Shown: in pieces, positions 312-56,850 of the stretch | Position numbering within the stretch: the first letter of the stretch is position 1 | Layout of the letters: the number at the start of each line of letters is the position of its first letter | From: a virus | Lineage: Duplodnaviria > Heunggongvirae > Uroviricota > Caudoviricetes | Virus record (IMG/VR): IMGVR_UViG_2821013286_000001 | Span: 1 to 64,000 of that record | Reading direction: 5' to 3' (one strand) | DNA length: 64,000 nucleotides | Notes under the pieces: generated by a model | The model's database searches: none | Seen by the model: only the letters and a program-made list of their open reading frames with translations | What the model was told of the DNA's origin: nothing | Program-made: the position numbers and the translations under genes

Positions 312-380
312 TAAACCTTGCTATAGGTTTCTAGGTTCCCTTATATCTATGATTCTATAAAAATAGATACTGAGGTAATC

Positions 381-6949: not shown

Positions 6950-7005
6950 CAATTTCAGCGGGGTTCCAGAAACTCCGCTGTCATTCCGCTTTCTTTGCTG
7001 ATATT

Positions 7006-7028
7006 TATGGATAAACATTTACATACAG
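7006..7028. promoter_or_regulatory. palindromic intergenic element
   Basis: tatggATAAACATTTAcatacag, 5 nt before ATG 7033. Confidence 0.5.
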
Positions 7029-7032
7029 AAAG

Positions 7033-7581: not shown

Positions 7582-7593
7582 TTGGAGAATAAA

Positions 7594-9075: not shown

Positions 9076-10065
9076 ATGTTATTCGAACGACAAACCACGC
9101 GTTATCCTGATCTCTATCCGTGGGCGCAGGATTATGTGAAGGCGATGCGTGACGGCTTCTGGACCGTCGATAAGTTCTCCTTTGAAGCTGACATTCAGGA
9201 CTTCTCGACCAAGCTGGCACCGGCTGAAAAGCAGCTTCTCATTCGTACGCTCGCGGCGATCGCCCAGATCGAGGTCAATGTTAAGACCTATTGGGCAAAC
9301 CTGCACCGTCACCTGCCGCATCCTGGCATGATGAGCCTTGGTATCACCATGGCGCATATCGAGGACATTCACGACAAGGCTTACGCACGCCTGATCGAAG
9401 TTCTCGGCCAGATGGAAATCTTCAAGAGCATCATTGACGTGCCTGTCATCCAGAAGCGCATGAAGTACCTCGCGAAGTACACGGATCGCGTCTACGACAA
9501 TGATCAGAAGCAATTCATCTACAGCCTGATCCTGTTCACGCTTTTCACCGAAAACGTCTCCCTGTTCACGCAGTTCTACATCGTCATGTTTCTGAACCGC
9601 GAAGACGGCGTGATGAAGGATGCGGCGCAACAGGTGAAGTACACGCGCAATGAGGAATTACTTCACGCTCAGGCTGGCATGCGCATCATTCAGGAGCTGA
9701 AGAAGGAATATCCGCACCTGTTCGACCAGGAGCTGGAAGACCGCATTCGCGAAGAATGTTTGGTTGCCTACGATGCAGAGCGCGAGCTTATCAAGTGGAT
9801 TCTTGATGGTTACGGTCGTGACGGCCTGAACTTCGACGCTTTGGATAATTTCATCAAGGATCGACTGAACAGCTCGCTTCAGGGCATTGGCTACAAGCCG
9901 CAGTTTGAGATCAACACAAATCTTTTGATGGACACAGATTGGATGGAACGCGGCGCTTACGCTCCGGTGAAGTTCGACTTCTTCCATGGCGAGAATACCG
10001 AATATCTCATGGAAGATATGCCACGCGACGACAATTTTGATGCGCGTCTGGCTCTCAATTTTTAA
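9076..10065 (+). CDS. nrdB: ribonucleotide reductase class I beta (small) subunit
   Basis: Ferritin-like di-iron motifs (EVNVKTYW..., IEDIHDKAYA), tyrosyl-radical region TQFYIVMF, second iron site NEELLHAQ; start chosen at ATG 9076 (track start 9007 lies inside a promoter element). Confidence 0.8.
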   Translation: MLFERQTTRYPDLYPWAQDYVKAMRDGFWTVDKFSFEADIQDFSTKLAPAEKQLLIRTLAAIAQIEVNVKTYWANLHRHLPHPGMMSLGITMAHIEDIHDKAYARLIEVLGQMEIFKSIIDVPVIQKRMKYLAKYTDRVYDNDQKQFIYSLILFTLFTENVSLFTQFYIVMFLNREDGVMKDAAQQVKYTRNEELLHAQAGMRIIQELKKEYPHLFDQELEDRIREECLVAYDAERELIKWILDGYGRDGLNFDALDNFIKDRLNSSLQGIGYKPQFEINTNLLMDTDWMERGAYAPVKFDFFHGENTEYLMEDMPRDDNFDARLALNF

Positions 10066-22750: not shown

Positions 22751-25234
22751 ATGCAAGTTTCTCAGATTGCGTCCCTGGACACGCACGTGGTCCTGGGTGG
22801 CGAAAGTGCGCGCGCTTTTAGCATCTCTGATGCGCCTGAATTCTTCACTGTCCTTTCCGACACGCTCTATCAGCACAAAAAGCTCGCTGTTGTCCGCGAA
22901 GTCATCTGCAACGCCTACGATGCTCACATCGTGACGGGTAAGACGGATGTGCCAGTACAGGTCACGTTGACAGATAAGAACCTTGAGATCCGTGATTTCG
23001 GTCTCGGCATTCCCGACGACAAGATTGCGCCGATCTATTGCGTCTATGGGGCCTCTACAAAGGCTGCCGATGGAAAACAGACCGGTGGTTTTGGTCTCGG
23101 TTCGAAGGCGCCTTTCGCTTATTCCGACCACTTCACGGTCACGAGCTGCCATAACGGCGAGAAAACTGTCTATGCGATCTCTCGCGGTGGCGCTGAGACG
23201 GGCGGTCGTCCAGAGGTTCGCGCCGTCGTTCGCATGAAGACCGACGAAACAGGTCTGTCCGTTTCAATTCCGTTGCAGGAAAACGATCGCAATCAGTTTG
23301 AGATCCTGATCAGACGGGTCACGCAGCTCGGCGGAATGAATGTGTCGCTCAATGGCGTAGATATTCCAAAGATCGAATATGATCGCCCTGGCAATGCAGG
23401 CTTCGTCCTAATCCCCTCTTATTCGGACATAATGAGAAATCTGGACAATTACCGGACGACGGTTTTTGTGCGCTACGGAACTGTGGTCTATCCGGTCGAT
23501 GCTGGTCGAGGCGATAGTGAGCTGGACGAAGTGCTTCGTTCGATTGGCTTTGTGCTTGGTTCCAATAGAGCAATTATCGTTCAAGCGCCGGAACACTCCA
23601 TCGGTGTAACACCTTCACGTGAGTCCCTTTCTTACACCAAAAAGACGATGCAAACGCTCGTCCAGATATGTACGTCTGCATTCCATCACATAAAGCGCCA
23701 GATGTCTGTCAGCTTTGCCAACGACTTCGATCATGCGCTCGCTAAGAATAAGGAAAAAGGCGCAGATAAACGCGAAGTGATCTCGCTTATGCTCGGCTCG
23801 TTCGATGGGTCAAGGTTGGACTACAACAAGTCGAACCCTTCGTTGGTAGCGGCGGCCAATGACGGTTACATCAGCAGCCTTGACACAATTGGCTCTGAGC
23901 TTGCCGACAATTACCTGAGTTCGTTCGCTGCGTCCGCGCGTAAGACAGCCTCTCGTCTGGTAGGAAAGCATCATCCAGAGTTGGCGCGCTTGCTTCGCAG
24001 ATGGTCGCCATCTGGCAGTAAATATGACCTGAAACGCGACTACAACAAATTCATGTTGAAGCGCCTAAGCAAGATCAAGGCTTTGATCCAGCCGGTCAAG
24101 TCCGGCTATTTCGATGTGCGCACGAATAGCATCAAGAATGACAGGTTTGAGACCATTTTTGATAGCAGTCAGTTAGTGGCGGATCGAATTGTTGTAAGCC
24201 GAATTCTGCGCGATGCTTACGATGACACCGCCAAGCAGAAATTTGAGTATCATTGCGAATACCACACCGGCTATTACCGAAATTTTCCGGTTTTCACGAT
24301 CAAAAGTGACCTGCCGGAAGCGCGGATTAAGAAGATCACCAAACTCGCAAACAAGCTCGGCTTTCAAATCTCGTTCGCCGAGTACGTGAAGCCAGTTCGG
24401 AAGGCTCCTGCGCCGAAACCTAACTCTGGTTTTCTACGCGCATCGAGCTTCCATCGCTTCGATTATGATGGAAAGATTCAGCCGCGCAACACACTTGAGC
24501 AGGCCGAACTTGAGCGCGTTCCGACGGCGAAGTCCTTCATTCGTGTCACGAGGGCAAGAAACGCAAGACATCTATTCTGGCTTCAGGAAGAGCTGCGGCG
24601 CGATTTTAGCGCGTTCGCCACCCTTTATCCTGACACGGTTCTTGCTACCGATGCTGAAGAGGAAAAGAAGCTGATCAAGCTCGGTGCGCGTCCTGTCCTT
24701 GAGGTTGTTCATGAGGAGCTGAAGGAGGCAACAAAGTTGCAGTCCGCTGCACTTGCATTGGCTTTGCGTCTGCAATGGCACGCCGGGTTCGACGGAGATC
24801 GATACGGCTACGGCTCCAGGGTGAACGATATCGTGAAGCTTTGCTCTGTTTCAGCCGAGTTTGCCAAGTTGGTTCTCGGTGTGAGTGTCAAATACGACGA
24901 AAAGACGGAGCGAATTGCGAAGTTGGGCGATGCTGTTCGTACGGCGATTGGTGTCGCTGGCTTCTCAGAGCAGCGCCGCAACCCATTCACCCACCTGACC
25001 GAACTCTACAATAAACTGAAGGAGAAATATCCAAAGATAATCGGCAATACTGACGCTGTGAAAGAGGCGACAGATTTTATGAAAATAATTGATTCCAACT
25101 ACATCCGCGCAGCAAGCCACAATGATCCCGCTTGCGCTCGTGATGTAATAAATACTGCGAAATATCTTAAACAGAAATTTTCGAAAACTCTCAAGGCTGA
25201 ACAAGCCCAAGCTGTTGTTAAGGAGGCAGCGTAG
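22751..25234 (+). CDS. rIIA: rIIA-like protein (GHKL ATPase N-terminal domain)
   Basis: N-box AVVREVICNAYDAH, G1 IRDFGLGIP, G2 GGFGLGSKAPFAYSDHFTVTSCHNGEK; these track recalled T4 rIIA segments AVVRELITNMIDAH and GGFGLGSKSPFSYTD; 827 aa. Confidence 0.75.
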   Translation: MQVSQIASLDTHVVLGGESARAFSISDAPEFFTVLSDTLYQHKKLAVVREVICNAYDAHIVTGKTDVPVQVTLTDKNLEIRDFGLGIPDDKIAPIYCVYGASTKAADGKQTGGFGLGSKAPFAYSDHFTVTSCHNGEKTVYAISRGGAETGGRPEVRAVVRMKTDETGLSVSIPLQENDRNQFEILIRRVTQLGGMNVSLNGVDIPKIEYDRPGNAGFVLIPSYSDIMRNLDNYRTTVFVRYGTVVYPVDAGRGDSELDEVLRSIGFVLGSNRAIIVQAPEHSIGVTPSRESLSYTKKTMQTLVQICTSAFHHIKRQMSVSFANDFDHALAKNKEKGADKREVISLMLGSFDGSRLDYNKSNPSLVAAANDGYISSLDTIGSELADNYLSSFAASARKTASRLVGKHHPELARLLRRWSPSGSKYDLKRDYNKFMLKRLSKIKALIQPVKSGYFDVRTNSIKNDRFETIFDSSQLVADRIVVSRILRDAYDDTAKQKFEYHCEYHTGYYRNFPVFTIKSDLPEARIKKITKLANKLGFQISFAEYVKPVRKAPAPKPNSGFLRASSFHRFDYDGKIQPRNTLEQAELERVPTAKSFIRVTRARNARHLFWLQEELRRDFSAFATLYPDTVLATDAEEEKKLIKLGARPVLEVVHEELKEATKLQSAALALALRLQWHAGFDGDRYGYGSRVNDIVKLCSVSAEFAKLVLGVSVKYDEKTERIAKLGDAVRTAIGVAGFSEQRRNPFTHLTELYNKLKEKYPKIIGNTDAVKEATDFMKIIDSNYIRAASHNDPACARDVINTAKYLKQKFSKTLKAEQAQAVVKEAA

Positions 25235-25235
25235 A

Positions 25236-26654
25236 ATGAGAAAGGTAACAGTAGCCGCAGCGATCATCACCAAAACGGGCGTTATGCTCTATACGGCTGA
25301 TGGCAAGGAAGTACCGCTCGCGTCAGATGGCTGGCGCACTCAGGAAATTCTTAACCTCGTAACGCCGGTCATCGCGCGCCGCAAAACTATCGAAATCGAC
25401 TTGGACAGCTTCTCGCTGGAGCATGAGGTCGAGCGCAAGACCAACGGCTTTGTTCGCTTCTTCCGCAAGGTCGGTGCGAGCATCACCAGTCTCTTTGGCA
25501 CGAAGGACGGTCAGACAGAACTCGTCACTGACACGCTTACGGAGGCCACAACCGTCGCTGTTGTCAACGGCAAGGAAATTCCAGGAATGGAAAACCTTGA
25601 AAACCACATGATCCACGCCGTTGAAAACGATCAGACGGAAGGTCTCAAAAACTTCCTGGACCGTCTATCTCGCGTGATTGATGAGCGCGGACACTCGGTG
25701 CAGGAACTCCTCAACTTCATGAAGAAGGCTGACCTTCCGATTGCCAATGACGGCTCGATCATCGCCTACAAGACGCTCAACAAGAGCGAGGATCGGTTCG
25801 TTGACTGCCACACCGGCAATGTCAAGCAGCGCGTCGGCTCGCGTGTATCGATGCCGATTGGTTTGGTTGATAAGAACCGCCGCACACTCTGCTCGACTGG
25901 TCTGCACATTGCGCGTCTCCGCTATCTGCGTGGTTACAACGGTAATGTTCTGACACTGGTTAAGATCGCACCGGAAGACGTCGTGAGCGTTCCCTACAGC
26001 GAACCTGACAAGATGCGTGTGGCAGCTTACCACATCGTCAAGCTGCTTCCAGATGACGCTGCGCGTGCCGTTTTCAGCGGTGCATCGATCGCAGGGAACA
26101 AGGAAGCTGAAAAGATGCTTGCTGACGTGATTGCTGGAAAGCACATTCATGTCATCGAGGAAGTTCACATCAAAGGCTCGTACGGCACTGATATCGAAAC
26201 CACTGTCCTTGATGACAAATATAAGCCGGTCGAATCGATTGCCGATTTGTCAACGAAGCCTGTGAAGGTCGAGCTGGTCAAGGAAGGTGGTGGCGGTAAG
26301 CCCGTCGATATCGAGAAGATCCGCGAAACCGCAGACAAGGCGATCGCTGAAAAGGCGAGCGAGACAGAAGTCAAGAAACCTGAAGTCTCCAACGTTGTCG
26401 AGTTCGATGCGGCCAAGACGGTGAACAGTTCAAAGTCGAAGTCGAAGCCGAAGAAGAAAGCCGCCGCTGCGGTGAAGGCTGAGGTTGCGAAGGCTCGTCC
26501 ATCGGTCCCTGCCGCGCCTGACGGCATGAGCGAGCGTGACTTCCAGGTTCTGGCATTGCTCGACAAGGGTGTGTCCAAATCCCAGATCGAACGTGACATG
26601 AAGATTTGCCACAAGACGATCAATAAGATCCTGAAGAAGCATCGCGCTGCCTAA
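25236..26654 (+). CDS. rIIB: rIIB-like protein with C-terminal HTH
   Basis: Central CSTGLHIARLRYLRGY...PEDVVSVPYSEPDKMRVAAYHIV resembles recalled T4 rIIB core (CSRGLHVCS...DVVSIP...KMR); C-terminal LuxR/sigma-region-4-like helix-turn-helix (ERDFQVLALLDKGVSKSQIERDMKICHKTINKIL); AGGAGG SD. Confidence 0.55.
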   Translation: MRKVTVAAAIITKTGVMLYTADGKEVPLASDGWRTQEILNLVTPVIARRKTIEIDLDSFSLEHEVERKTNGFVRFFRKVGASITSLFGTKDGQTELVTDTLTEATTVAVVNGKEIPGMENLENHMIHAVENDQTEGLKNFLDRLSRVIDERGHSVQELLNFMKKADLPIANDGSIIAYKTLNKSEDRFVDCHTGNVKQRVGSRVSMPIGLVDKNRRTLCSTGLHIARLRYLRGYNGNVLTLVKIAPEDVVSVPYSEPDKMRVAAYHIVKLLPDDAARAVFSGASIAGNKEAEKMLADVIAGKHIHVIEEVHIKGSYGTDIETTVLDDKYKPVESIADLSTKPVKVELVKEGGGGKPVDIEKIRETADKAIAEKASETEVKKPEVSNVVEFDAAKTVNSSKSKSKPKKKAAAAVKAEVAKARPSVPAAPDGMSERDFQVLALLDKGVSKSQIERDMKICHKTINKILKKHRAA

Positions 26655-39958: not shown

Positions 39959-40364
39959 TATCTACTGTCCTATCGATACCCTGAAATCAATTTGTTAAAA
40001 AGAATAATCAGAACAAACATTTACAAGGTAGTTGCTGTTAGAATCCCAGAACTCAAGTTTTGAATTTTTCTAGACATATAGAATTATAGGTTTATAGTTA
40101 TAGAGAATTAGTCATTGCGGTTTTTCTGTCTTTTTCCCGCAATGACATGACGCGCAGCCGAAGGTCGTGTCAGTCATGAAACAACATCGGCAGCCAGAGC
40201 ATGGGTTCCTCCATTCTTTCATGTGATCTGGCCGTGTATCGCACGAACAGCGAGAGCCGTGTATTTGCCAATGCGCGCACCAAAAACAGGAGAGAAGCCA
40301 TGTCACCGGTTTCTCTCCTGTTTCGTTTTATGCTAAGCGGAATCAAATCAATGAAGAGCCTCTT

Positions 40365-41085: not shown

Positions 41086-41303
41086 TCACTCCCTACTCTC
41101 TTCTGAGGCGCCGGACTGTGTTCTCGTAACACTCTGGCGCCTTGTCGTAAGGTGATGTTCCTGTGAGGCCGCAGCTCAACCACTTTGTCGTAGGCAGACA
41201 CAGCGACATCGAAATTAGCCAAAGCTCCGAGTACCTCGGTAATCCCCCTCCAGTCATGATGCCACTCGTCAATACGAAACCGTAGCTCCGGATGTATGTT
41301 CAT
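41082..41303 (-). CDS. hypothetical protein (convergent with upstream + gene)
   Basis: 73-aa ORF with GGAGTG SD on the minus strand. Confidence 0.35.
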   Translation of the reverse strand: MNIHPELRFRIDEWHHDWRGITEVLGALANFDVAVSAYDKVVELRPHRNITLRQGARVLREHSPAPQKRVGSD

Positions 41304-41659
41304 GTCTCGTCACTCCAATAAGAACAGAACGAGAACATACACCCAAAGCGAAAACTGAATCCACCGCTTTCTAGACGCACATTCTGACAAGTCAGCTTTA
41401 CGTATAGAGACCGAGAGTTGACCGTCCTCACCTACCGAGATTGAAAATACCAAGAGAACGCAACCCCTCGAATTTTGGTTCTCCTTTACGTCAGCTTAGC
41501 GCGAGCTTGGCACGCAGTTGACAGAAACTGCCCAAAACGACCTTTTTGGACGTCAACCTCGGAAACCTCATAGAAGCTCACTGACGAGCGTTTTTAAATT
41601 TCAGGTCACATCATAAGCGAAAACATGAGAACGCTTCTCAGCGCTCAAATCTGACAGCT

Positions 41660-41675
41660 TTCTAGATATCTAGAA
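41660..41675. repeat. perfect 16-bp palindrome TTCTAGATATCTAGAA
   Basis: Read directly from the non-coding hub; TTCTAG half-sites recur elsewhere in intergenic DNA. Confidence 0.55.
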
Positions 41676-41889
41676 CAGTAGAGAACTAGCTATCTTCAAT
41701 TACCGGAACATAGAAGTGAACAACGCTCGAAATCCATAAAGCTAGGCTTCTAGAAACCTACTCACCTATTTCCGATCCGGTAGACCAAAACAGAGAACTC
41801 ACCACGACCGGAACCGGCACCAAATTTCCATATACAGAACGCACCCACTGGAAACGCTGAATTCCCAATGGAAACGGTAGAGAAAAGAA

Positions 41890-42240
41890 CCTCGGAGAAT
41901 TCTCACCTCATAGAAAGACAGAAACCTAGAAAGATAGGCATATAGAGAGAAAGCCTCATAGAAACCTACAGAGACAGATCCATAGAAAGAGAACTACCTG
42001 CGGATATAGAATTCTAGAATTACAGAAAGAAAGGCTCATAGAGAGAAACAGCTAAGAGCATATGCGTAGGAGTGAGAACTGTAGAGAGGTGGCTACGTGA
42101 ATGAGAGAAGTGGCGAGAGAGTAGACGTATGAGTGGAGAGTAGGCTGTGAGAAATAGCGAGAGGTAGAGGGTAGGTGTAGATGAGTGGATAGCGTGAGAA
42201 GGGAGAGGTGGAGAGAAACGTAACGAAGGATGGTGGAGCG
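41890..42240 (+). repeat. purine-rich (GA-rich) low-complexity block on the + strand
   Basis: 42060-42240 is roughly 78% A+G with about 7% C; contains repeated CATAGAAA / TAGAGAG / GAGTGGAGAG words; no credible ORF. Confidence 0.6.
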
Positions 42241-42244
42241 GCGC

Positions 42245-42400
42245 CAGCCAGGCCCTCTTCCTGCCAACCGCCCCGCTCCCCTCCTTCCAGATCCGCAGCC
42301 TAATCCACTCTGGACCAGCCACCGGAACCGCCGCACCCATTCCCGCGAGCCTCTCATGTCCGCAGTTTCCTAGATTCCTGCATTCCTTTAATTCTAGGAA
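42245..42400 (+). repeat. pyrimidine-rich (C-rich) block immediately abutting the purine block
   Basis: ccagccaggccctcttcctgccaaccgccccgctcccctccttcc...; abrupt strand-composition switch at about 42240. Confidence 0.55.
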
Positions 42401-42443
42401 CCGCAACATTTGGAAGCCAAGTTCCGTACATTTATATAAATCT

Positions 42444-42510
42444 ACATTCCTAGATATATATTATATATACATCGCACGGCTTCCAAACACGTCGGGAATG
42501 TGTCCAACTC
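42444..42510 (+). repeat. 55-bp element copy A (alternating TA run + ACATCGCACGGC + AAACACG..AATGTGTC)
   Basis: atatatattatatatacatcgcacggcttccaaacacgtcgggaatgtgtccaactc; about 160 nt upstream of gene 42670. Confidence 0.55.
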
Positions 42511-42669
42511 CTTGAATCTCGCGGCTATCGATGGGTTTCGGTTCCGCATTGTTTGTCTTGCGGTCCGCATCGCCGCGCTTCTAGGAACAAGCTCACCTTT
42601 GCTAAAACGGTAGTCAGAAACAACGAAAGACCGCCACGAAGCGGTCACTCACAAAGCAAGGGTAATGAC

Positions 42670-43491
42670 ATGGCAAACATTTTCAATCTTACCGCCGCTG
42701 ACGCCCACGACCTCGACGCTCTGATTGCGGACGCGCTCATTCAGGAAGAAGCAGAGAAGGCGAAGCTCGATGCTTATGCCGACCAGGCCAAGGAGATCAT
42801 TCAGGCCGAGGCTGTTCGACAGGAGCAGCTGAACGTTCCGGTCATCGAGCGGATCTATATCGACGGCAATCTCAAAGTTACGGCTGACGCCATCGAGATA
42901 GAGCAGGTGGAAGCGTTCTGCGAGCGCATTCGAGCCGAGTTTGTGACACGTGCGGTTTACGAGAAGGAGAAGAATGAGGCGAACGACCGCATTCAGAAGA
43001 CCCTTCACGGCTGTGCAAGCATTCTTGCCTCGATCCGAGGTGCACGCGGTATGCTCGCCTGTGACGTTGATCCGAGCTTCATCAATCGCCATCACCGCGA
43101 TAATCAGCGCTTCAACGTCTACGCCATCGAGAAGGTGGGTAAATTCGTGCAGCAGATGGATTTTGGTGCGATCGGAAACGCCATCAACAATGCCGTGTTC
43201 AAGACCATGTGGAATTTCATGAACGCTGGCGACGAATTCACCATGGACGCAGCCAAGTGTGCAGCGAGTGCTGATATCCGTCTGAAGGACGAGCAGAAGC
43301 GCTGGCACAAGCACCTTGTGCGCCACACAGTCAAATCGACGGTGGCGAGCACGCAGTCATCCTCTACTCTCAACGCCATGGCAGTTCTGGGAATTGCCAA
43401 GCAGACCGGTATGAAGAACGGCGTTGAAGTTTGGCAGATGATCGACGGACCGCAGACACGTCGGATTGCGGATGTTTTGAAGCTGGTCTGA
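42670..43491 (+). CDS. hypothetical protein (first gene downstream of the non-coding hub)
   Basis: MANIFNLTAADAHDLD... (274 aa) starts at an in-frame ATG of track ORF 42553..43491. Confidence 0.5.
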   Translation: MANIFNLTAADAHDLDALIADALIQEEAEKAKLDAYADQAKEIIQAEAVRQEQLNVPVIERIYIDGNLKVTADAIEIEQVEAFCERIRAEFVTRAVYEKEKNEANDRIQKTLHGCASILASIRGARGMLACDVDPSFINRHHRDNQRFNVYAIEKVGKFVQQMDFGAIGNAINNAVFKTMWNFMNAGDEFTMDAAKCAASADIRLKDEQKRWHKHLVRHTVKSTVASTQSSSTLNAMAVLGIAKQTGMKNGVEVWQMIDGPQTRRIADVLKLV

Positions 43492-43707
43492 CGCCGCTAA
43501 GCGCCTACTCTACGGAATAGCCAGGTTCGCGCCTGGCTTTCTCCGTTTCCGGGAACGGCGGTTATTTCTCATAAGGCAAACAGGACCAGGAAGCGGCGCT
43601 GGCGGTCGTGAGAAATCCATAGGAAGAGCCATAGGCGCGTCCGGTGGCTCATTGAGCACAATTCCACCAGTTGGCAACACGGAACGCGTCAGCGCCTCAA
43701 TTTCAGC

Positions 43708-43750
43708 GTTTTAGGCGTATCTATCTTTCTATAAATCTATGTTCATAGAA
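43708..43750 (+). repeat. promoter-like cassette copy 1 (TTTTAGGCGTATCT..TTTCTATAAATCTA..TTCATAGAA)
   Basis: gttttaggcgtatctatctttctataaatctatgttcatagaa; 35 nt upstream of ATG 43785. Confidence 0.6.
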
Positions 43751-43784
43751 ATGCAGAACGCTAAATCGTTAGAAAGATAGAGAA

Positions 43785-44009
43785 ATGGCAGAACATACCT
43801 ACCTGCGAGCGCTTGAGACCAAGTTAGCGCGGTCTGTCGCCACTGACCTGGCCGATAAGCTCTGCGATCAGACGCATGAGGAGTTCCAGGAGCTGGTCGC
43901 CGCTAAGCGCCGCAGTCTGCCAAAGGTGGTTTGGGAAGACGTGATCGACTTCTTCGCCGATCTGACGACCAAGAGCCACATCCAAGCCGCTTATATGCTG
44001 GAGGCATGA
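43785..44009 (+). CDS. hypothetical small protein (cassette gene 1)
   Basis: Preceded 35 nt upstream by a repeated promoter-like cassette. Confidence 0.45.
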   Translation: MAEHTYLRALETKLARSVATDLADKLCDQTHEEFQELVAAKRRSLPKVVWEDVIDFFADLTTKSHIQAAYMLEA

Positions 44010-44293
44010 CCATGCTGACAAACGGAACAACTGATGGCGTGACGCTCGAAGAGGAAGAGCAGATCAGACGGCTGCTTCCGGAACGTCTCAAGCGCTTTGT
44101 GCTGGAATTCATCAATGAGCCTATTCCGTGGCGTTGGCTATGGAACGCTTACCTGACGCGCGGAGAAGATGACCTCATGAAGCTTTTGGAAGTCGCCAAC
44201 GTCAAAATGCATGCAAATGCGATGGGTGAGGACTTCTACCGGTACGTCAGCCCTTATCGAGACCTCGAAAGACCCGCAACATCGCGCTTTTAG
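44006..44293 (+). CDS. hypothetical protein
   Basis: ATGA overlap; 95 aa. Confidence 0.4.
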   Translation: MTMLTNGTTDGVTLEEEEQIRRLLPERLKRFVLEFINEPIPWRWLWNAYLTRGEDDLMKLLEVANVKMHANAMGEDFYRYVSPYRDLERPATSRF

Positions 44294-44329
44294 GCGTAAC
44301 TGCATTTCTATAAATCTAGCTTCATAGAA
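44287..44329 (+). repeat. promoter-like cassette copy 2
   Basis: cttttaggcgtaactgcatttctataaatctagcttcatagaa; 20 nt upstream of ATG 44349; about 85% identical to copy 1. Confidence 0.6.
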
Positions 44330-44348
44330 CGCTAGAAAGGTAAATACT

Positions 44349-44633
44349 ATGTCCATGAGCTATTCCGCTACCCTGAACAGCTACGATCCAGCGTCCAATT
44401 CGATGACGGTAGATGTTCGTCGCTTAGAAGAGCCGAACGAGACGTTTCTGGTCGAAGCCTATATCGACTCGCGTATCTTCGGAATTCGCGATACCACCGA
44501 CCACACAGGTGATGCGGAAGACGATTATGCAGCCGAGGTTCTCTATCATTTCCTCAAGGCGCATAAACATGCTGTAGCCGCCCACCGACCTACCGTCATA
44601 GATGGCGTATTTCTGTTTTCCATAAACGTCTGA
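44349..44633 (+). CDS. hypothetical small protein (cassette gene 2)
   Basis: Preceded by cassette copy 2; followed by an intrinsic terminator. Confidence 0.45.
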   Translation: MSMSYSATLNSYDPASNSMTVDVRRLEEPNETFLVEAYIDSRIFGIRDTTDHTGDAEDDYAAEVLYHFLKAHKHAVAAHRPTVIDGVFLFSINV

Positions 44634-44637
44634 TCTA

Positions 44638-44662
44638 AAGCGCCCATGTGGCGCTTTTTCTT
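44638..44662 (+). terminator. rho-independent terminator
   Basis: AGCGCC-catgtg-GCGCT followed by TTTTTCTTT; after cassette gene 2. Confidence 0.6.
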
Positions 44663-44788
44663 TACCAGGCTATGCGGACCAGGCCGAGGCTGTGGCGGCT
44701 GATCCCGTTCCCTGTCCCAACGCCGAGCAGCTCACCAGGTTTCACCCATCTGAACCCGCTACAAATGTTTCTAGATCCGCAACGTTCT

Positions 44789-44835
44789 GTTTTTAGGCTT
44801 ATCTAGCTTTCTATAAAACTAGATTCATAGAGAGC
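44789..44835 (+). repeat. promoter-like cassette copy 3
   Basis: gtttttaggcttatctagctttctataaaactagattcatagaga; 41 nt upstream of ATG 44876. Confidence 0.6.
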
Positions 44836-44875
44836 AACAAATGAATAGCTCTAGAAAAACAGAAGGATAGGTAAC

Positions 44876-45250
44876 ATGAACAACGCCACTCAGATCGCAG
44901 ACAAGATTGCCAATGAACTCGTTCACGTCTCCGAAATGATGAATGCCGTTGCGACTGCCGATATCACCAATCTCACACGTCAACCTGTCTCCAAGCGCGA
45001 GACCTCGCCGGTCCGCAAGCTTCAGATCCTCAAAGAAATGCAGCAGGAAGTGTATGCGCGTAACAAAGCAGCCGTCGAGAAGGTTCTGACAAGCCGCACC
45101 TCGTTCGGTGATGACTTCCCTGACATGGTGCAAGACCGCTTCAAGGACATCGATCGCTCGCGTCGTGCAGAGCGTATGTTCCACGCAAAGCGCAAGCGTG
45201 AGCGTGCCGAGCTGATCGCCGCTGCAAAGCTCGCACGTGAGGAGCGATAA
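44876..45250 (+). CDS. hypothetical protein with basic C-terminus (cassette gene 3)
   Basis: Preceded by cassette copy 3; C-terminal FHAKRKRERAELIAAAKLAREER. Confidence 0.45.
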   Translation: MNNATQIADKIANELVHVSEMMNAVATADITNLTRQPVSKRETSPVRKLQILKEMQQEVYARNKAAVEKVLTSRTSFGDDFPDMVQDRFKDIDRSRRAERMFHAKRKRERAELIAAAKLAREER

Positions 45251-45419
45251 GAGAGTAGGCGCTTAGGCGCCTTTCCACCGCGGTAACATTGGACCTGGAA
45301 CTGGACGTGGCCGACGTACACAGAGCCGAACCTGGTGAGCTGTGCGTGAAACCCGCTAGAACCCTTCAATTCTTCATATCTAGGATTCTACAGCTCTAGG
45401 AATGGGATTGGCTAGAAAT

Positions 45420-45620
45420 ATAGGTCGCGGCTTAGGAAACCGGCATCCGTACGGGATCGACGGGCTGGCGCTTCGGCTGCGGGGCTGGCTGTCGTCTCAC
45501 AGGCGCGCGGGATCGACGGATAGGAACCAGGCCAGTGGCTTTTCCGTACAGGCCGTCCACCGGATGATCCTATGGATTTGCCCAGACAGCGAGAAGGACC
45601 GCTCATCACGAGCAGCCCTC
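45420..45620. other. GC-rich anomalous island with internal direct repeats (GGGATCGACGG x2, GGGCTGGC x2)
   Basis: Local GC clearly above the rest of the window; repeats at 45453/45509 and 45462/45482; no convincing ORF. Confidence 0.4.
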
Positions 45621-45625
45621 ACCCT

Positions 45626-45814
45626 TTAAACCAGACCCAACCGGTTCAGCTCCCGCAGACTTTCGAATTTCACACCTGTCTGATTACGGTATGGTCGGCC
45701 AAACATTTGGTCGATCCGCTGAAAGCTGCGTTTGTCAGATTCAATCAGCTTGTCCGTGAGTGACTTTTTCTTTTTGGACTGCTTGTACCAGAGCTTCGGA
45801 GAGACATCGCTCAT
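45626..45814 (-). CDS. hypothetical small basic protein
   Basis: 62-aa minus-strand ORF with GGAGAG SD; abuts a GC-rich island. Confidence 0.3.
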   Translation of the reverse strand: MSDVSPKLWYKQSKKKKSLTDKLIESDKRSFQRIDQMFGRPYRNQTGVKFESLRELNRLGLV

Positions 45815-45815
45815 A

Positions 45816-46013
45816 TCAGCTCTCCGACGTGCATGCGAAAGTGGTCGAGACGCGAATGCCGTTCTGATCGACCGGTACAGCGCTTTGACGCGCTGCGGAC
45901 TGTGCAGAGACGCAATCCTCGTAGGTCAGACCATAATCAACCACATAGTCATGCGTTGATACGTCTTGCGGCGTTTGCGTCATGACGATTGCGAGCAGAA
46001 TGAAGGTTTTCAT
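45816..46013 (-). CDS. small secreted protein
   Basis: N-terminal signal-like MKTFILLAIVMTQTPQ; minus strand, immediately upstream of 45626..45814. Confidence 0.3.
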   Translation of the reverse strand: MKTFILLAIVMTQTPQDVSTHDYVVDYGLTYEDCVSAQSAARQSAVPVDQNGIRVSTTFACTSES

Positions 46014-46378
46014 ATGTGTTACCTATTTATCTGTTTTTGTATGATTATAGATACCTAGATTTCTATATTCCTTCAAAGCGAACGTTGCGGCATTGCTAGA
46101 TGTCGAGAAGGGGAGAATTGCAGAAAACTAGGAAGGTAGAAGCCTAGGAAGCAAGAATTCCATGTCCGCAGCCTTGCAGGAATCTAGAAGGACAGGATTG
46201 CAGGCGACCAGGAGCCGAGCCACCGGATAATCCAGTAGGGGAGGCGGCACGAAATAGGATCGGCGGAAAATGGCGTTCGGCTCACAGGGGAATGGAGAGC
46301 ATTGCCCATAAGGAAAGGGGAGCGGGACGCGGCGCTGGACCGCTGATTATCGGACTGCTGATAGTGCGCTTGCAACAT

Positions 46379-46428
46379 ATGTTTCACAACAATGTTTCAC
46401 GCAAAGGTCAAAAAGCGTCAAATTTGAC
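46379..46428. repeat. direct repeat ATGTTTCAC x2 and 12-bp palindrome GTCAAATTTGAC
   Basis: atgtttcacaacaatgtttcac ... gcgtcaaatttgacc, 3' of the low-GC minus-strand gene. Confidence 0.45.
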
Positions 46429-46508
46429 CGCTGACACGCGTTTTGATTTTTGCGCAAAATGATACGCGCGCTATTGCTAACGCGCGTCTGTGACTCGATT
46501 TGAGCGAA

Positions 46509-46534
46509 CCGCGCTAGATATTTCACTAGCGCGG
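46509..46534. repeat. inverted repeat CCGCGCTAG-atatttca-CTAGCGCGG
   Basis: 9-bp arms 11 nt past the stop of gene 46545..47177(-); no U-tract. Confidence 0.4.
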
Positions 46535-46544
46535 TAGGTTACGA

Positions 46545-47177
46545 TTAGAGCTTTGCAAGTACCGCTTTCAGCATAGCGTTTTCGGTATTGATCTTATGCG
46601 TTTTGAAACGACCGCTAAACGTTGCACGCTCTTCAGCGCTCAAAAGGTTCAAAATGTTGAGACCTTCAAGAACAACGCTATTGCTCGACGATTGCGTGTC
46701 GCACGTTGCAGCGTCGCAATTCGTCTTACCACGCTTGATTGCATACATACCGCTTTCGCTCTTGTCAGTAATGTAGTCATGCGAGAACGACTTGCGACTA
46801 TCAAGTGAGGTGAAAATTTCACGCTCATTCACGATGAAAAGCTTGATAGTCTTCATTGCAGGTTCAAGAAATGCGTCAAGCGTTGCTTTACCGCTTTCAT
46901 CGATAAGAAACTTCAACATGCTTTGCAGCTTCTTGAGCGCATACATATTTTGCGTGAAAACACCGACATTGCATTGAACGCTATCAAGCAATTCTTCAAC
47001 CTGCTTTACACCGAGCAAAAGAGAAATGTTGTGAAGCATTTTCAGGTTCGGTGCGCTGATAGTACCTTTCTTCACTTCTGCGTCGATACGCGTTGCGAGC
47101 GCAAGCACATACTTGTTTTGAGCTGGTGCATTGTTCGTTGCGTTCTGCTTCTTTGCTACATTCTTAGTCATTGTCAT
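46545..47177 (-). CDS. hypothetical protein in a lower-GC segment
   Basis: 210-aa minus-strand ORF; GC visibly lower (about 44%) than surrounding genes; palindromic element at its 5' side (47186-47212). Confidence 0.5.
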   Translation of the reverse strand: MTMTKNVAKKQNATNNAPAQNKYVLALATRIDAEVKKGTISAPNLKMLHNISLLLGVKQVEELLDSVQCNVGVFTQNMYALKKLQSMLKFLIDESGKATLDAFLEPAMKTIKLFIVNEREIFTSLDSRKSFSHDYITDKSESGMYAIKRGKTNCDAATCDTQSSSNSVVLEGLNILNLLSAEERATFSGRFKTHKINTENAMLKAVLAKL

Positions 47178-47185
47178 TACCTCAT

Positions 47186-47212
47186 GTTGTGTGAACGTTT
47201 ATACATATTTGT
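47186..47212. promoter_or_regulatory. palindromic intergenic element (upstream of minus-strand gene)
   Basis: gtgtgAACGTTTATACAtatttg, 9 nt from the start of gene 46545..47177(-). Confidence 0.45.
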
Positions 47213-47467
47213 TTTTGTGCATCGTTGCGAGACTTGCTTGCTCGCTTTCGATGATTTGAATTTATCAGCTTTCACGTTTTATGCAACGCGGGATGCACCG
47301 AAGTCTTAGAGATATCAACAGGTTAGCTAGGGGATGCCTTCATTGTGCGCCACGATTTTTGAACCGTTCCTCCGGTCCGCTGCACCTTCTAAAATCCCCA
47401 CAATCCCTTATTCGCTATCCTCCGGTTCCTATACCCAACCGCCAACAGACAGGCGTTCGTTCCTCCG

Positions 47468-47497
47468 GTTTGTAAATAAACGTTGATTTATATTTCT
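47468..47497. promoter_or_regulatory. palindromic intergenic element
   Basis: tttgTAAATAAACGTTGATTTATAtttc before gene 47552. Confidence 0.5.
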
Positions 47498-47551
47498 GCG
47501 GTGCATATGTTCGGATCATTGATTTGCTAATCCTTTTCCGAAAGACCCTTT

Positions 47552-47782
47552 ATGTCTCAATCCGTTTCAAGCACGTCTGACGAACGCACCGTCAACAACA
47601 CCATGCGCCATGCCTACCGTGTTCTCTCCGATGAGGAGAAGGCGAACATGGGCAAGGTTAAGGATATGGGCCTCGAATTCCATAGTCTTGTCGATGGCCT
47701 TGGCGCCAGCCGCGAACTCTCCATCGCAAAAACCAAAATCGAAGAAGCCGTCATGTGGGCAGTCAAGCATCTGACTGCCTAA
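47552..47782 (+). CDS. hypothetical protein
   Basis: First gene of a + operon after the palindromic element at 47468. Confidence 0.45.
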   Translation: MSQSVSSTSDERTVNNTMRHAYRVLSDEEKANMGKVKDMGLEFHSLVDGLGASRELSIAKTKIEEAVMWAVKHLTA

Positions 47783-49282: not shown

Positions 49283-49546
49283 TCAGCCCTTGGAATTTTC
49301 CTTGTACCAAAGGTCCACTGCCTCATAGATCACCTGGGTCAATGTCTTATCGACCGCGACAGCTGCGCCCTTCAGCTTACGATGCCACTCACGATCCACG
49401 ATCACATTGAGCTGTGAGGTGGTTTTGGCGCGCATGTTATCCGCTGGCTTGATGTTGGTATCAAGCGACGTGGCAAAATACGAGCGCTGTGCGGTGCGCG
49501 GTGCCTTCTTTGGCGTGTAGTCTTCTTCATCGTCTGCCATCTTCAC
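49283..49546 (-). CDS. ParG-like ribbon-helix-helix partition protein
   Basis: 87 aa, basic N-terminus, C-terminal RHH-like segment LNVIVDREWHRKLKGAAVAVDKTLTQVIYEAV; 4-nt overlap with the upstream ParA gene. Confidence 0.45.
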   Translation of the reverse strand: MKMADDEEDYTPKKAPRTAQRSYFATSLDTNIKPADNMRAKTTSQLNVIVDREWHRKLKGAAVAVDKTLTQVIYEAVDLWYKENSKG

Positions 49547-50184
49547 ACTCCTGTCCGCTCATCAACCAGTTTATAAATTTCTGTCAGAAGACGCTTGGCG
49601 TCACGCTTGAGCGTGGCAACCTTGACTTCCTGCACCGCTAGTCCTGTCGAGTTCGCAAACGCGTAGGTCGGTCGGAACTTGATCTCGGTCTTGGCGATCT
49701 TGAAACCGCCGCCGCTAATCAATTCGCGCGTCTCCTTGACGGCAATCGCGCTATCGACGGATTTGCTGATGACGAACAGGATATCATCTTTTTTGGCACC
49801 TTTATCGACCAGCTCCAGCGCGAACGCGAGCTGCGGCTCCACATCGTCTGCGATCGGCGCGGTCGGAATAAGGATCAGACGAGAGGCGAGGGCGATATCG
49901 AGCGAGGTATCGTGACTGTCTGGCTTGCCATCGGCCACAACCAGATCGACGCGCTCTTTGCTAAGCATGGACGGCTTGGCATAAGGCTTTGCATCAATCG
50001 CAGGCTCGTATTGGGCCGCCTTGCGTTTCTCATTCCATTTGAAGGAGGTTAGCTGTGTGGTGTTGAAGTCGGCAATCTTCACAGACCAATCATTGCTCGC
50101 ATAGCCAACCGCAATCATGCGCGACAATGTGGATTTTCCGACGCCGCCCTTCTGGCTGAGACAGGAAATAATGACCGGTTCCAT
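49543..50184 (-). CDS. parA: ParA/ParF-type partition ATPase (small type Ib)
   Basis: Deviant Walker A SQKGGVGKST; 213 aa; followed by a small RHH gene. Confidence 0.75.
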   Translation of the reverse strand: MEPVIISCLSQKGGVGKSTLSRMIAVGYASNDWSVKIADFNTTQLTSFKWNEKRKAAQYEPAIDAKPYAKPSMLSKERVDLVVADGKPDSHDTSLDIALASRLILIPTAPIADDVEPQLAFALELVDKGAKKDDILFVISKSVDSAIAVKETRELISGGGFKIAKTEIKFRPTYAFANSTGLAVQEVKVATLKRDAKRLLTEIYKLVDERTGV

Positions 50185-50223
50185 AGGAATCCTCGTGGCA
50201 AATCAATGTTTGATTTACCTTAT

Positions 50224-50259
50224 AATCTAGGTTCCTAACAACCTATTAAACCTAGAATT
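50224..50259. promoter_or_regulatory. imperfect inverted repeat AATCTAGGTT-N15-AACCTAGAATT in the parA upstream region
   Basis: Candidate operator or centromere-like site for the ParG-like protein; flanked by direct repeats TGATTTACCT at 50211 and 50341. Confidence 0.4.
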
Positions 50260-50274
50260 ATATAAATCTATGAA

Positions 50275-50300
50275 AATATAAATAAATGTTTACACAACCT
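50275..50300. promoter_or_regulatory. palindromic intergenic element (ParA upstream region)
   Basis: aatataaaTAAATGTTTACAcaacc, about 90 nt upstream of parA on the minus strand. Confidence 0.5.
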
Positions 50301-50322
50301 TAACTTTTAGGTATAGACAAAC

Positions 50323-50343
50323 TCATGACGTTCCACGTCATGA
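50323..50343. promoter_or_regulatory. inverted repeat TCATGACG-ttcca-CGTCATGA in the parA upstream region
   Basis: Arms of 8 bp, 5-nt spacer. Confidence 0.4.
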
Positions 50344-50379
50344 TTTACCTTGTGTCATTTTCTTGTTTTGTTCAGGAAA

Positions 50380-50414
50380 CCCCTGCTCTTTCATAGAGCA
50401 GGGGTCTTTTTTTT
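50380..50414. terminator. GC hairpin + T8 tract at the 3' end of the helicase gene region
   Basis: ACCCCTGCTCT-ttcat-AGAGCAGGGGT TTTTTTTT; the T-tract is on the + strand although the neighbouring gene is on the minus strand. Confidence 0.45.
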
Positions 50415-56060: not shown

Positions 56061-56118
56061 ATTATATTATATATATACATCGCACGGCATTGAAACACGG
56101 CTAAAATGTGTCGAGACG
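56061..56118 (+). repeat. 55-bp element copy B
   Basis: attatattatatatatacatcgcacggcattgaaacacggctaaaatgtgtcgagacg; about 80 nt upstream of the terminase small-subunit gene; about 80% identical to copy A. Confidence 0.55.
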
Positions 56119-56199: not shown

Positions 56200-56850
56200 A
56201 TGAGTGATTTTGAGGAAGCTGCGGATAGCGCAGATGATGCTTCCAAGCCGATTAGAAAGCTGACGGACGCGGATTTCGCAGAGGCCGTCAATCTGTATGA
56301 GTTGGGCAAGGCTGGCATCACCGAGCTTGCGGCCAGGTACGGCTGTTCGCGTCAGAATCTCTCCGATCGCTTCAAACGTGCCGGCGTCAAGAAATCCTCC
56401 CGCGTTCATGAGCTGACTGATGCCGCTGCGGCAGCAAGCCGAAAGGAAGCTGAAGCAGCGGCAGCCGCAGCGCAGCGTTTCGCCAACCGCCGCGCCGACA
56501 TGATCGAAGAAGTTCGAATGTCTGGGCTGAATGCGCTCAAGCAAGCGCGAATGCTCGCCCAGAAATCAGTTGTCGATGCGGTGAAGTCAGGAAGACCGGT
56601 TGCAGTCGCGGAAGACGACCTGAAGTCTCTACAGCGCTTTAACAAGCTATTGGTCGATAACATCGAAAGCTCTTTGCGCATTCTCAAAGCCGACGACCAC
56701 GTGGACGACACTGATCTGCCAAATCTCGTGATCGCAAATCTAACGGATGAAGAAATTCTGGCTCATCACAAATCCACCGGCGCTTTGCCGGAGGACGCAA
56801 CGCTTGATGACCTCAATCTTCAGGATTCGATCGGGCTTGAGGACGAATAA
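56200..56850 (+). CDS. terminase small subunit (putative)
   Basis: N-terminal HTH (ELAARYGCSRQNLSDRFKRAG), central Ala-rich coiled region, acidic C-terminus; directly upstream of the large terminase. Confidence 0.5.
   Translation: MSDFEEAADSADDASKPIRKLTDADFAEAVNLYELGKAGITELAARYGCSRQNLSDRFKRAGVKKSSRVHELTDAAAAASRKEAEAAAAAAQRFANRRADMIEEVRMSGLNALKQARMLAQKSVVDAVKSGRPVAVAEDDLKSLQRFNKLLVDNIESSLRILKADDHVDDTDLPNLVIANLTDEEILAHHKSTGALPEDATLDDLNLQDSIGLEDE

Follow-up and report, generated by a model that had tools for sequence, protein, structure and literature searches.

What is repeated in front of the small genes at positions 43708-45250 of this phage DNA, and which factor reads the repeats? We addressed this question in the window, by which we mean the whole 64,000-nt stretch that was analyzed. 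The sequence-only reading of the locus had described three tandem promoter-like cassettes, each driving a small gene, and had set them in the early infection of a lytic phage. This lytic frame was wrong because the element belongs to a phage-plasmid lineage: the window is part of a ~108-kb element in an Ochrobactrum isolate, which groups with the B1VFA/RHEph10/pLM21S1 phage-plasmid lineage and has relatives that are maintained as 115-119-kb plasmids. The label of a T4-like myophage, drawn from the rIIA/rIIB, gp46-like, and NrdA genes, was also wrong; the characterized relatives are siphophages with plasmid features. Phage-plasmids are common, and their regulation is poorly understood.

The copies at 43708, 44287, and 44789 were present as first described, and their identity, estimated at ~85%, was confirmed by blastn (81-88% between pairs of cassettes 1-3). 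A 24-nt core, TTTCTATAAATCTANNTTCATAGA, matched at 43726, 44305, and 44808 with 0-1 mismatch each, and 100 dinucleotide shuffles yielded 0 matches to it, giving a chance expectation of 0. The conserved unit exceeds the 45 bp originally delimited; it begins ~14 nt further upstream (CC[GT]CAA...) and extends to the ATG, with a total length of ~80-100 bp. The distance from the 45-bp cassette to the gene had been given as 20-41 nt, and the actual gaps to the ATG were 32, 17, and 41 nt. The cassettes and a related core are as follows:

43695-43787, plus strand: cassette 1, full unit (CCTCAA, TTTTAGGC box, CTATAAAT, 3 inverted and ~5 direct octamers, SD, ATG)
44271-44351, plus strand: cassette 2, an 81-bp island, 91-92% identical between genomes, with non-homologous genes on both sides
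44777-44878, plus strand: cassette 3, with 2 inverted and ~6 direct octamers up to the ATG
42431-42456, plus strand: a fourth and weaker match to the core (TTTATATAAATCTACATTCCTAGATA), located 214 nt before the gene for a 273-aa protein

Searches of the phage and plasmid collections with the DNA of the region produced no match, and both an exact-pattern scan and a protein-seeded scan of IMG/VR produced 0 matches. A pattern scan of GTDB genomes returned 16 single matches, all in unrelated AT-rich genomes; since ~17 matches are roughly expected for an 18-base pattern in 596 Gb, we read them as chance matches. The pattern scan of metagenomes returned one singleton.

All three cassettes share one order of parts: CCGCAAC and the TTTTAGGC box, a -10-like CTATAAAT located 13 bp downstream of the end of that box, and then a ribosome-binding site and the ATG. 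From the -10 onward, the sequence falls into a strict 8-bp register that reaches the ATG in cassettes 1, 2, and 3. Each octamer consists of a 5-bp box (TCTAT/ATAGA) and a 3-bp A/T-rich spacer, and the boxes run in a fixed order of orientation, with 2-3 inverted boxes (TCTAT/TCTAG) followed by 3-6 direct ones (nTAGA). The TATAAAT that had been called an extended -10 is -10-like, but it has no TG and is hence not extended. A sigma-70 consensus scan of 41300-47600 called none of the cassettes, and they contain no sigma-70 -35; the candidate hexamers are CGTTTT, GCTTTT, and TGTTTT. In the case of cassette 3, the interval between the preceding terminator and the gene holds no other promoter candidate. 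The view that the cassettes are regulatory sequences directly before small genes was supported by the relative L002, in which the core palindrome TTTCTATAAA-N6-TTyATAGAAA also precedes small genes and the cassette core is kept although the flanking protein is only 53% identical.

Three copies indeed exist, but that number is an undercount, as the window contains at least 7-8 arrays of this kind, of which these are a subset. Arrays of four boxes at 8-bp spacing occurred 10 times in the window, against 0 in shuffles, and were densest at 40-46 kb. The TCATAGAA-type word was correctly said to recur in an upstream hub, which shares the 8-bp register of the cassettes. The gene at 42670 is also preceded by a similar array. 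A second motif of the window, T[GA]TA[AG]ATAAA[CT]GTTTA, has 13 copies and is separate from the cassettes. The hub, the adjoining gene, and the other arrays are located as follows:

344-380, plus strand: cassette-like core (TATCTATGATTCTATAAAAATAGATACTGAGGTAATC) preceding the ORF at 381-884
40071-40098, plus strand: array of four TAGA boxes at 8-bp spacing, fronting the next plus-strand genes (~40100)
41907-42058, plus strand: hub array of ~19 consecutive octamers, most of which end in TAGA, CAGA, or TAGG; candidate parH-like site
42670-43491, plus strand: 273-aa protein with a C-terminal winged helix, adjoining the hub
46014-46078, minus strand: cassette-like array and leader (..AAAACAGATAAATAGGTAAC..ATG) fronting genes for 65-aa and 62-aa proteins
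50213-50278, minus strand: box array (TTCATAGA TTTATATA ATTCTAGG ...) immediately before the parA-like gene, in a position like that of OF

The last of these arrays fronts a pair of putative partition genes:

49543-50184, minus strand: small ParA (ParF-like) ATPase, 213 aa, with a KGGVGKST Walker A motif
49283-49546, minus strand: ParG-like ribbon-helix-helix (RHH) protein, 85-87 aa, candidate reader of the boxes

The ATPase is of the Walker type, lacks an N-terminal HTH, and matched the PHROG family of ParA-like partition proteins (E 1.7e-21), and the RHH gene overlaps the stop codon of parA. The RHH protein of the window scored 22.8 bits against Pfam PF09274 ParG (gathering score, 21.4), and the best PDB match of a profile of 7 RHH orthologues was TP228 ParG (1P94; E 6.4e-7), in an alignment over the RHH domain that spans ParG residues 34-75. 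The tail of the protein is K/P-rich with a basic residue, and an invariant A-N-M motif precedes the strand. A word-index search with the ParG-like protein recovered only a 94% twin, and the parA-RHH pair was found in every relative whose fetched locus includes the par genes.

To compare box words, we scanned de novo for words with 8/16-bp self-spacing across 15 relatives. The word is TAGA in the window, L001, and L002, with the window's cassettes shared by L012, and the beta-strand of the RHH protein reads QLN[VL][IM]V. In L005, L006, L007, L009, and pLM21S1, the word is AGCTA and the strand [SG]MTF[LN]M; in RHEph10, RHph_N1_10, RHph_Y2_11, and a Shinella plasmid, they are TCGCTA and D[LM][NS]FKV; and in L010, they are CCTGAA and MLSFSV. 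No clear periodic word was seen in a GC-rich Methylobacterium plasmid. The box word thus changes together with the DNA-reading beta-strand of the RHH protein, a covariation that comprises four classes and essentially one phylogenetically informative switch. The ParA of L010 is 64-67% identical to those of the AGCTA group, which is as close as the members of the group are to one another, yet both the word and the strand of L010 have switched. Judged by sequence position only, arrays of the genome's own word lie upstream of parA in L005, L006, L007, L009, L010, L034, and L035. The hub also includes a purine-rich, TAGAGAG-like part that all relatives share, including those with other box words. 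This weakens the interpretation of the hub as a pure array of ParG boxes, and some of it may be a different element.

These observations suggest that the boxes are most likely read by the element's own ParG-like partition protein. We consider it reasonably probable that each cassette is a phage-plasmid promoter overlaid by an operator for this protein, that the cassettes belong to one regulon, and that they double as recombination joints. Co-regulation by one factor, as originally proposed, remains the best reading, and the ParG-like protein is now a named candidate for that factor. We infer promoter activity from the sequence, and binding and repression by the ParG-like protein from sequence, homology, and covariation. 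Transcription would begin after CTATAAAT, the resulting leader of 20-60 nt would have an AGG/GAGG ribosome-binding site at its end, and the -10, the start site, and the entire leader, being built of octamer boxes, would form the operator. Each box would be occupied by one dimer of the RHH protein, with cooperative coating of the array, a model taken from TP228 ParG at the OF operator and the parH centromere, and this coating would shut the cassette promoters once the ParG-like protein is present. The small genes would consequently be expressed chiefly when the element enters a naive cell and stay repressed while it is carried as a plasmid. Since boxes also occur in the hub and upstream of parA-parG, one regulon would join partition, the hub, and the accessory genes. 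In the AGCTA-type relatives, the arrays lie mostly upstream of the -10-like element and not over it, and repression by occlusion may therefore not be the general mode.

The cassettes might instead be ordinary unregulated promoters, used by the host RNA polymerase or belonging to the TGTAAATAAACGTTTACA-motif phage class, if the likeness of the copies came from promoter constraint and recent duplication or recombination and the 8-bp pattern were a by-product of CTAT words. CTATAAAT resembles the rhizobial -10 and the second motif of the window (TATAAAT..A..TT.A), and the cassettes are placed after terminators and before an SD and ATG. The TCTAT boxes are also similar to the rhizobial -10 (CTATAT), and promoter mimicry could account for some of the repetition. 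However, the register persists for 30-50 nt past the -10 into the leader, relatives use words that are not promoter-like (CCTGAA and TCGCTA) in the same architecture, and the same words recur upstream of parA in each genome. We regard unregulated promoters as an unlikely explanation.

It is similarly improbable that the boxes are read by another protein, whether the 273-aa winged-helix protein, a ParB_N protein, or a host AT-tract silencer such as MucR. The 273-aa protein is confidently modeled as a winged helix and is invariably located between the hub and the cassettes, and the cassettes are AT-rich islands in a genome of 52% GC. The recognition region of the winged helix (LVRHTV..ASTQ), however, is almost invariant across genomes with different words, and we rejected the 273-aa protein as the word reader, while a host silencer would leave the element-specific words unexplained. 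ParB proteins classically bind longer palindromic parS sites, not 8-bp arrays, and the RHH protein MetJ acts on tandem 8-bp sites. Tandem sites of this period fit the geometry of RHH proteins, as in TP228 ParG (PMC3130281).

An RNA-level role of the palindrome, whether in a 5'-UTR hairpin that governs processing or translation or in the control of read-through as a terminator or attenuator, is very unlikely. The inverted boxes pair somewhat, with z = -2.3 and -2.2 against shuffles when cassettes 1 and 3 are taken in their long versions, but the core hairpins reach only -1.9 to -3.1 kcal/mol, cassette 2 folds no better than shuffles, and the predicted folds differ among the copies. An Rfam search of the cassettes gave no match, and the RNA would lack the left arm if its start is downstream of the -10.

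The remaining part of the preferred reading, in which the promoter-operators double as recombination joints, concerns the genes that they front:

43519-43550, plus strand: hairpin and T-rich tail following the 273-aa gene, recognized by eye and not called by the terminator scan
43785-44009, plus strand: 74-aa gene behind cassette 1, conserved in L001 and L012, with no family match
44012-44293, plus strand: 93-aa gene in variable slot A, with unrelated genes in L001 and L012
44349-44633, plus strand: 94-aa gene in variable slot B, with an unrelated 62-aa gene in L001 and an unrelated 102-aa gene in L012
44637-44665, plus strand: intrinsic terminator closing slot B (hairpin at 44637-44657 and T-run), ~110 bp upstream of cassette 3
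44876-45250, plus strand: 124-aa gene behind cassette 3, conserved in L001, L012, and L002
45257-45272, plus strand: GC hairpin with a weak T tail, following the 124-aa gene
45626-46013, minus strand: 65-aa and 62-aa genes, convergent with the cassette-driven cluster

The first unit holds two genes and not the single one assigned to it, the 93-aa ORF having been overlooked; the last codons and stop of this ORF lie inside cassette 2, where the TAG of TTTTAGGC serves as the stop. As for the claim that two units end in intrinsic terminators, the one closing slot B is clear, but the T tail of the hairpin behind the 124-aa gene is poor. The 124-aa protein is 100% identical to a protein of Ochrobactrum sp. 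P20RRXII. An Acb2/Tad1-like gene lies 2.3 kb away.

Around this region the window, L001, and L012 are 89-98% identical, yet each of the two slots contains three unrelated genes in the three genomes. The swap junctions map to 44004/44271, 44351, and 44637-44650, at cassette 2 and in the slot-B terminator, which contains the right-hand junction. The distant L005 carries, in a comparable slot, a homologue of the L012 slot-B gene with 53% identity. Genes are thus exchanged at cassette-bounded slots among close relatives, and the search for cassette variation in related genomes that had been suggested at the outset was positive. We infer that the exchange proceeds by homologous recombination at the cassettes and terminator. 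The cassettes and the common terminator are short conserved islands around unrelated ORFans and would serve as the joints at which related genomes swap genes. Imperfect palindromes beside exchangeable ORFans, with three alleles per slot, also recall the attC-like sites of an integron-like system that inserts gene cassettes by site-specific recombination, but this is scarcely probable, as no integrase or recombinase family was found among the called genes within +/-10 kb in L001, L002, and L012, the right boundary of slot B is a terminator and not a second cassette, and the junctions lie within short shared sequence, as homologous exchange predicts.

The small cassette-driven proteins matched no Pfam or PHROG family, and the anti-defence or host-takeover role attributed to them, which their context suggests, did not gain support from these searches. 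A wider proposal, which we put forward tentatively and hold to be possible but on balance doubtful, is that a partition RHH protein acts as a genome-wide regulator with a fast-evolving box code of at least 4 classes, and that its arrays serve as promoter-operators, as a distributed centromere, and as recombination joints. The whole would form a recombinase-free, integron-like platform of exchangeable ORFans, possibly with anti-defence functions, that are silent in carriage and expressed in a burst on entry. If one partition protein does gate a set of exchangeable accessory genes, segregation, the difference in expression between the plasmid state and fresh entry, and the acquisition of small genes would all be linked. 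The four natural pairs of word and beta-strand provide a ready-made specificity series for RHH-DNA recognition, and the two variable slots, each with a different allele in each of three near-identical genomes, provide candidate genes with testable phenotypes, such as counter-defence.

Among known systems, the type Ib partition system ParF-ParG of TP228 also pairs a small ParA with a small RHH protein. The N-terminal tail of ParG is flexible and has an arginine-finger-like residue that stimulates ParF; the K/P-rich tail of the present protein may be a counterpart. In the OF operator of TP228, 8 degenerate ACTC boxes occur in direct or inverted orientation, are separated by AT-rich spacers of 4 bp, and each bind one dimer; parH contains 12 boxes of this kind (PMC3130281). 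The present element shares the arrays of short degenerate boxes in both orientations, the AT-rich spacers, and the 8-bp period, as well as the combination of an array directly upstream of the par operon with a longer one elsewhere (the 12 boxes of parH and the ~19 octamers of the hub). In contrast to the ACTC boxes of TP228, the words here are 5-bp and TAGA-type, the long array in the hub lies ~8 kb from the par genes, and small accessory genes have similar arrays over at least 6 further promoter regions. The arrays here, as candidate binding and centromere sites, belong to a phage-plasmid of ~108 kb. Omega, an RHH protein of pSM19035/inc18, and KorB of RK2 are partition proteins that act as global repressors, and repeated short sites at several promoters couple partition with the transcription of several operons. 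The logic of one centromere-binding protein at several promoters appears to be the same here. Omega sites are 7-bp heptads, KorB is a ParB-type HTH protein that acts on 13-bp palindromes, and neither system is known to flank exchangeable ORFan cassettes.

The middle promoters of T4 have a MotA box at -30, and the late promoters have TATAAATA ~7 nt upstream of the start and depend on gp55, a sigma factor of the phage itself. The cassettes recall the middle promoters in having a -10-like element without a -35 and a box that ends 13 bp before the -10, as in MotA-box geometry, although the sequence of the box is unrelated to that of MotA. TATAAAT resembles the late-promoter core; the cassettes read TATAAATC or TATAAAAC, with a base other than A at the eighth position of that core. 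The 13-copy motif fits a T4-type late promoter better than the cassettes do. With respect to integrons, which have a tyrosine-recombinase integrase close by, the repeats described here are 5' of the genes, whereas attC sits at the 3' end of promoterless cassettes.

The PeSLs (promoter-early stem-loops) of T4-type phages are ~100-bp conserved regulatory motifs that end in an SD and start codon; they cluster in a variable region directly upstream of ORFans, and gene replacements between close relatives have their junctions in the motifs or in terminator stem-loops (PMC2839356, PMC4122927). A PeSL comprises a sigma-70 consensus -35 and -10, preceded by an AT-rich region, and a stable stem-loop, often of polyG/polyC, that works as a terminator. 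The cassettes likewise lead through an SD into the start codon of an ORFan, within a region that is hyperplastic, and the junctions of gene replacement between close relatives lie in the cassettes or terminator. Unlike PeSLs, the cassettes have no sigma-70 -35/-10 consensus and no stable GC-rich stem-loop, the terminator being a separate element; they belong to a phage-plasmid with siphophage relatives and not to a T4-type myovirus, and they carry an operator-like array of boxes.

The cassette set of this phage-plasmid is real and larger than first reported. The three repeat copies noticed in the sequence-only reading at 43708, 44287 and 44789 were all present in the window, and a 24-nt core, TTTCTATAAATCTANNTTCATAGA, matched at 43726, 44305 and 44808 with at most one mismatch; a weaker additional copy was located at 42431, and 100 dinucleotide-preserving shuffles yielded no core match. 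The repeat had been given a length of 45 bp; however, when the three cassettes were aligned across three closely related genomes, a longer conserved unit emerged, CC[GT]CAA-N8-TTTTAGGC-N13-TATAAA..CTA..TTCATAGA, that continues to the ATG. A 93-aa gene (44012-44293), the final codons and TAG stop of which lie inside cassette 2, had been overlooked. Intrinsic terminators had been assigned to two of the units, and we found only the one at 44637-44657, followed by a T-run, to be convincing. No cassette was called in a sigma-70 promoter scan because the cassettes contain no -35 element; RNA folding of the cassettes produced no consistent or stable structure, and an Rfam search with them returned no family match. 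As judged by their position, and by a -10-like CTATAAAT that follows the TTTTAGGC box at a distance of 13 bp, the cassettes are putative promoters.

In an 8-nt register, each cassette reads as a series of octamers, each combining a 5-bp box with an A/T-rich spacer; two or three inverted boxes (TCTAT/TCTAG) precede three to six direct boxes (ATAGA, CTAGA, CAGA, TAGG) that extend to the start codon. The upstream hub (41907-42058) contains approximately 19 octamers of the same kind. Four-box arrays with exact 8-bp spacing and 14 or more of 16 positions matching TAGA occurred 10 times in the window versus none in shuffles, and all but one of the 10 fell within 40.0-45.4 kb. These observations establish the repeat, its register, its statistical significance and, with the data on relatives below, its conservation. 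In AGCTA-type relatives, the arrays are mostly upstream of the -10-like element. Weaker cassette-like arrays were found at the following places in the window:

upstream of ORF 381-884
upstream of the 273-aa gene (42670-43491, plus strand)
upstream of the minus-strand 65-aa gene, with a leader, AAAACAGATAAATAGGTAAC, nearly identical to that of cassette 3
upstream of the parA-like gene

A further run of four CTAG/TAGA boxes with 8-bp spacing (45371-45398) follows the 124-aa gene, in the convergent gap; no gene is obvious downstream of it. In the related genome L001, a 75-bp AT-rich palindrome with perfect arms, GGTGTCACGCCTACCAAATAT...ATATTGGTAGGCGTGAC (3744-3818, versus window 45311-45389), is an insert in the convergent intergenic region and is absent from the window.

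The gene following the small ParA gene (49283-49546, minus strand) scored above the Pfam ParG threshold, and the best PDB match of a seven-orthologue profile was TP228 ParG (1P94), followed by other ribbon-helix-helix (RHH) proteins. In each genome examined, parA has its own box word immediately upstream. The words came from an unbiased scan for 5-mers that recur at 8/16-bp spacing, and they switch together with the RHH beta-strand across genomes:

Box words and RHH beta-strands (the scan covered the genomes other than L012, which was placed in the TAGA class by cassettes near-identical to those of the window)
TAGA: window, L001, L012, L002; QLN[VL][IM]V
AGCTA: L005, L006, B1VFA (L007), L009, pLM21S1 (L035); [SG]MTF[LN]M
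TCGCTA: RHEph10 (L008), RHph_N1_10, RHph_Y2_11, Shinella plasmid (L034); D[LM][NS]FKV
CCTGAA: L010; MLSFSV

The informative contrast is L010. Its ParA is 64-67% identical to those of the AGCTA group, the same degree of similarity as within the group, whereas L010 has a different word and a different strand. The ParG-family membership, the position after parA and the matched word and strand classes are established. The C-terminal part of the 273-aa protein is a confidently predicted winged helix, the recognition region of which is almost invariant across word classes; therefore, this protein is unlikely to read the box words.

Around the region, the window, L001 and L012 share 89-98% identity, and yet each of two slots, A (44004-44270) and B (44352-44636), is occupied in the three genomes by three genes unrelated to one another. 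Cassette 2 (44271-44351) forms a 91-92% identical island separating the slots, and slot B has its right junction within the terminator; the replacements and their junctions are direct observations. A homologue of the L012 slot-B gene, 53% identical, occupies a cassette-driven slot in the distant L005, and RHEph10 carries a 50% identical homologue of an L002 gene.

Products encoded in the window include rIIA/rIIB, an SbcC-like nuclease, NrdA, RtcB, a helicase, TerL and a portal protein, and the annotated relatives closest to it are Rhizobium phages (approximately 45% amino-acid identity). Ochrobactrum sp. P20RRXII has, on a 107.9-kb contig, a protein 100% identical to the 124-aa product of the cassette-3 gene. 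Relatives of the 273-aa protein occur in phages B1VFA, V1VFA-S, RHph_X66 and RHEph10 and on 115-119-kb plasmids of Rhizobium, Sinorhizobium (pLM21S1), Shinella, Methylobacterium and Pararhizobium. B1VFA and V1VFA-S are siphophages with phage-plasmid features (PMC12509600), and pLM21S1 is a plasmid-like prophage related to RHEph10 (PMC5537653, PMC7969092). The conserved order is a 1.1-1.8-kb non-coding hub, a 270-290-aa protein and two to five small plus-strand genes with their own upstream spacers, then convergent minus-strand genes, an Acb2/Tad1-like gene, parA with a small gene, a helicase and two ParB_N genes. The rIIA- and rIIB-like genes are located at 22751-26654 (plus strand); the characterized relatives of this element are described as siphophage-like phage-plasmids. 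Just upstream of the L002 hub is a UmuC-like (IMS) and UmuD/LexA-like (Peptidase_S24) pair (5880-7609, minus strand).

Within the 1.37-kb non-coding hub of the window, positions 42040-42380 comprise a 78% purine, 6% C stretch and then a 45% C stretch. The purine-rich part is clade-wide and independent of the box word; since hubs of relatives with other words show the same composition, it is a separate conserved element, perhaps an origin or a non-coding RNA.

A second motif, T[GA]TA[AG]ATAAA[CT]GTTTA[CT]A, which has no -35 element and contains the palindrome TAAACGTTTA, occurs 13 times in the window:

plus strand: 1225, 12053, 16042, 20947, 26658, 30913, 37686, 47471, 50277, 60877
minus strand: 9039, 49214, 61929

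Those copies that were examined are found upstream of genes, the Acb2/Tad1-like gene among them, and the motif is probably the main phage-specific promoter class of the element. At the corresponding positions, B1VFA-type relatives carry TGTAAGTAAGTGTTTAC, in some cases with box arrays directly before it. A tiny plus-strand unit at 50277-50405, flanked by the helicase and parA-like genes, consists of one copy of the second motif, a 23-codon ORF (MTFHVMIYLVSFSCFVQETPALS) and a strong bidirectional terminator; it may specify a small RNA or micro-peptide. A separate 50-nt element, TATATA-rich and then CATCGCACGGC..AAACACG..AATGTGTC, is present in two copies with 82% identity, one at 42455-42504, upstream of the 273-aa gene, and one at 56063-56112, upstream of ORF 56200-56850, the ORF immediately before the large terminase gene; the core of the element is kept in L002 at about 9740-9770.

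The 76-aa protein encoded at 47552-47782 (plus strand) has an Acb2/Tad1 hairpin domain (Pfam E 2.4e-18) and is likely a sponge for cyclic nucleotides that counters CBASS or Thoeris. Relatives have homologues at the same place, some of them fused to a longer protein. A possible anti-defence role for the small cassette proteins is suggested only by genomic context, namely the presence of this gene.

The putative promoter-operator cassettes are best explained as a ParG/omega-like regulon, the sites of which double as shuffling joints similar to the promoter-early stem-loop cassettes (PeSLs) of T4-type phages. The ParG-like protein would coat the arrays and repress the cassettes, the hub would act as a parH-like site, and the cassettes would supply homology for recombination. 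Gene replacement at the cassettes is the behavior described for PeSLs (PMC2839356, PMC4122927), although the sigma-70 consensus and internal GC stem-loop that define PeSLs are both missing. The box arrays share the geometry of the TP228 ParG sites, which are arrays of degenerate ACTC boxes, both direct and inverted, with 4-bp AT-rich spacers between them and one dimer bound per box (PMC3130281).
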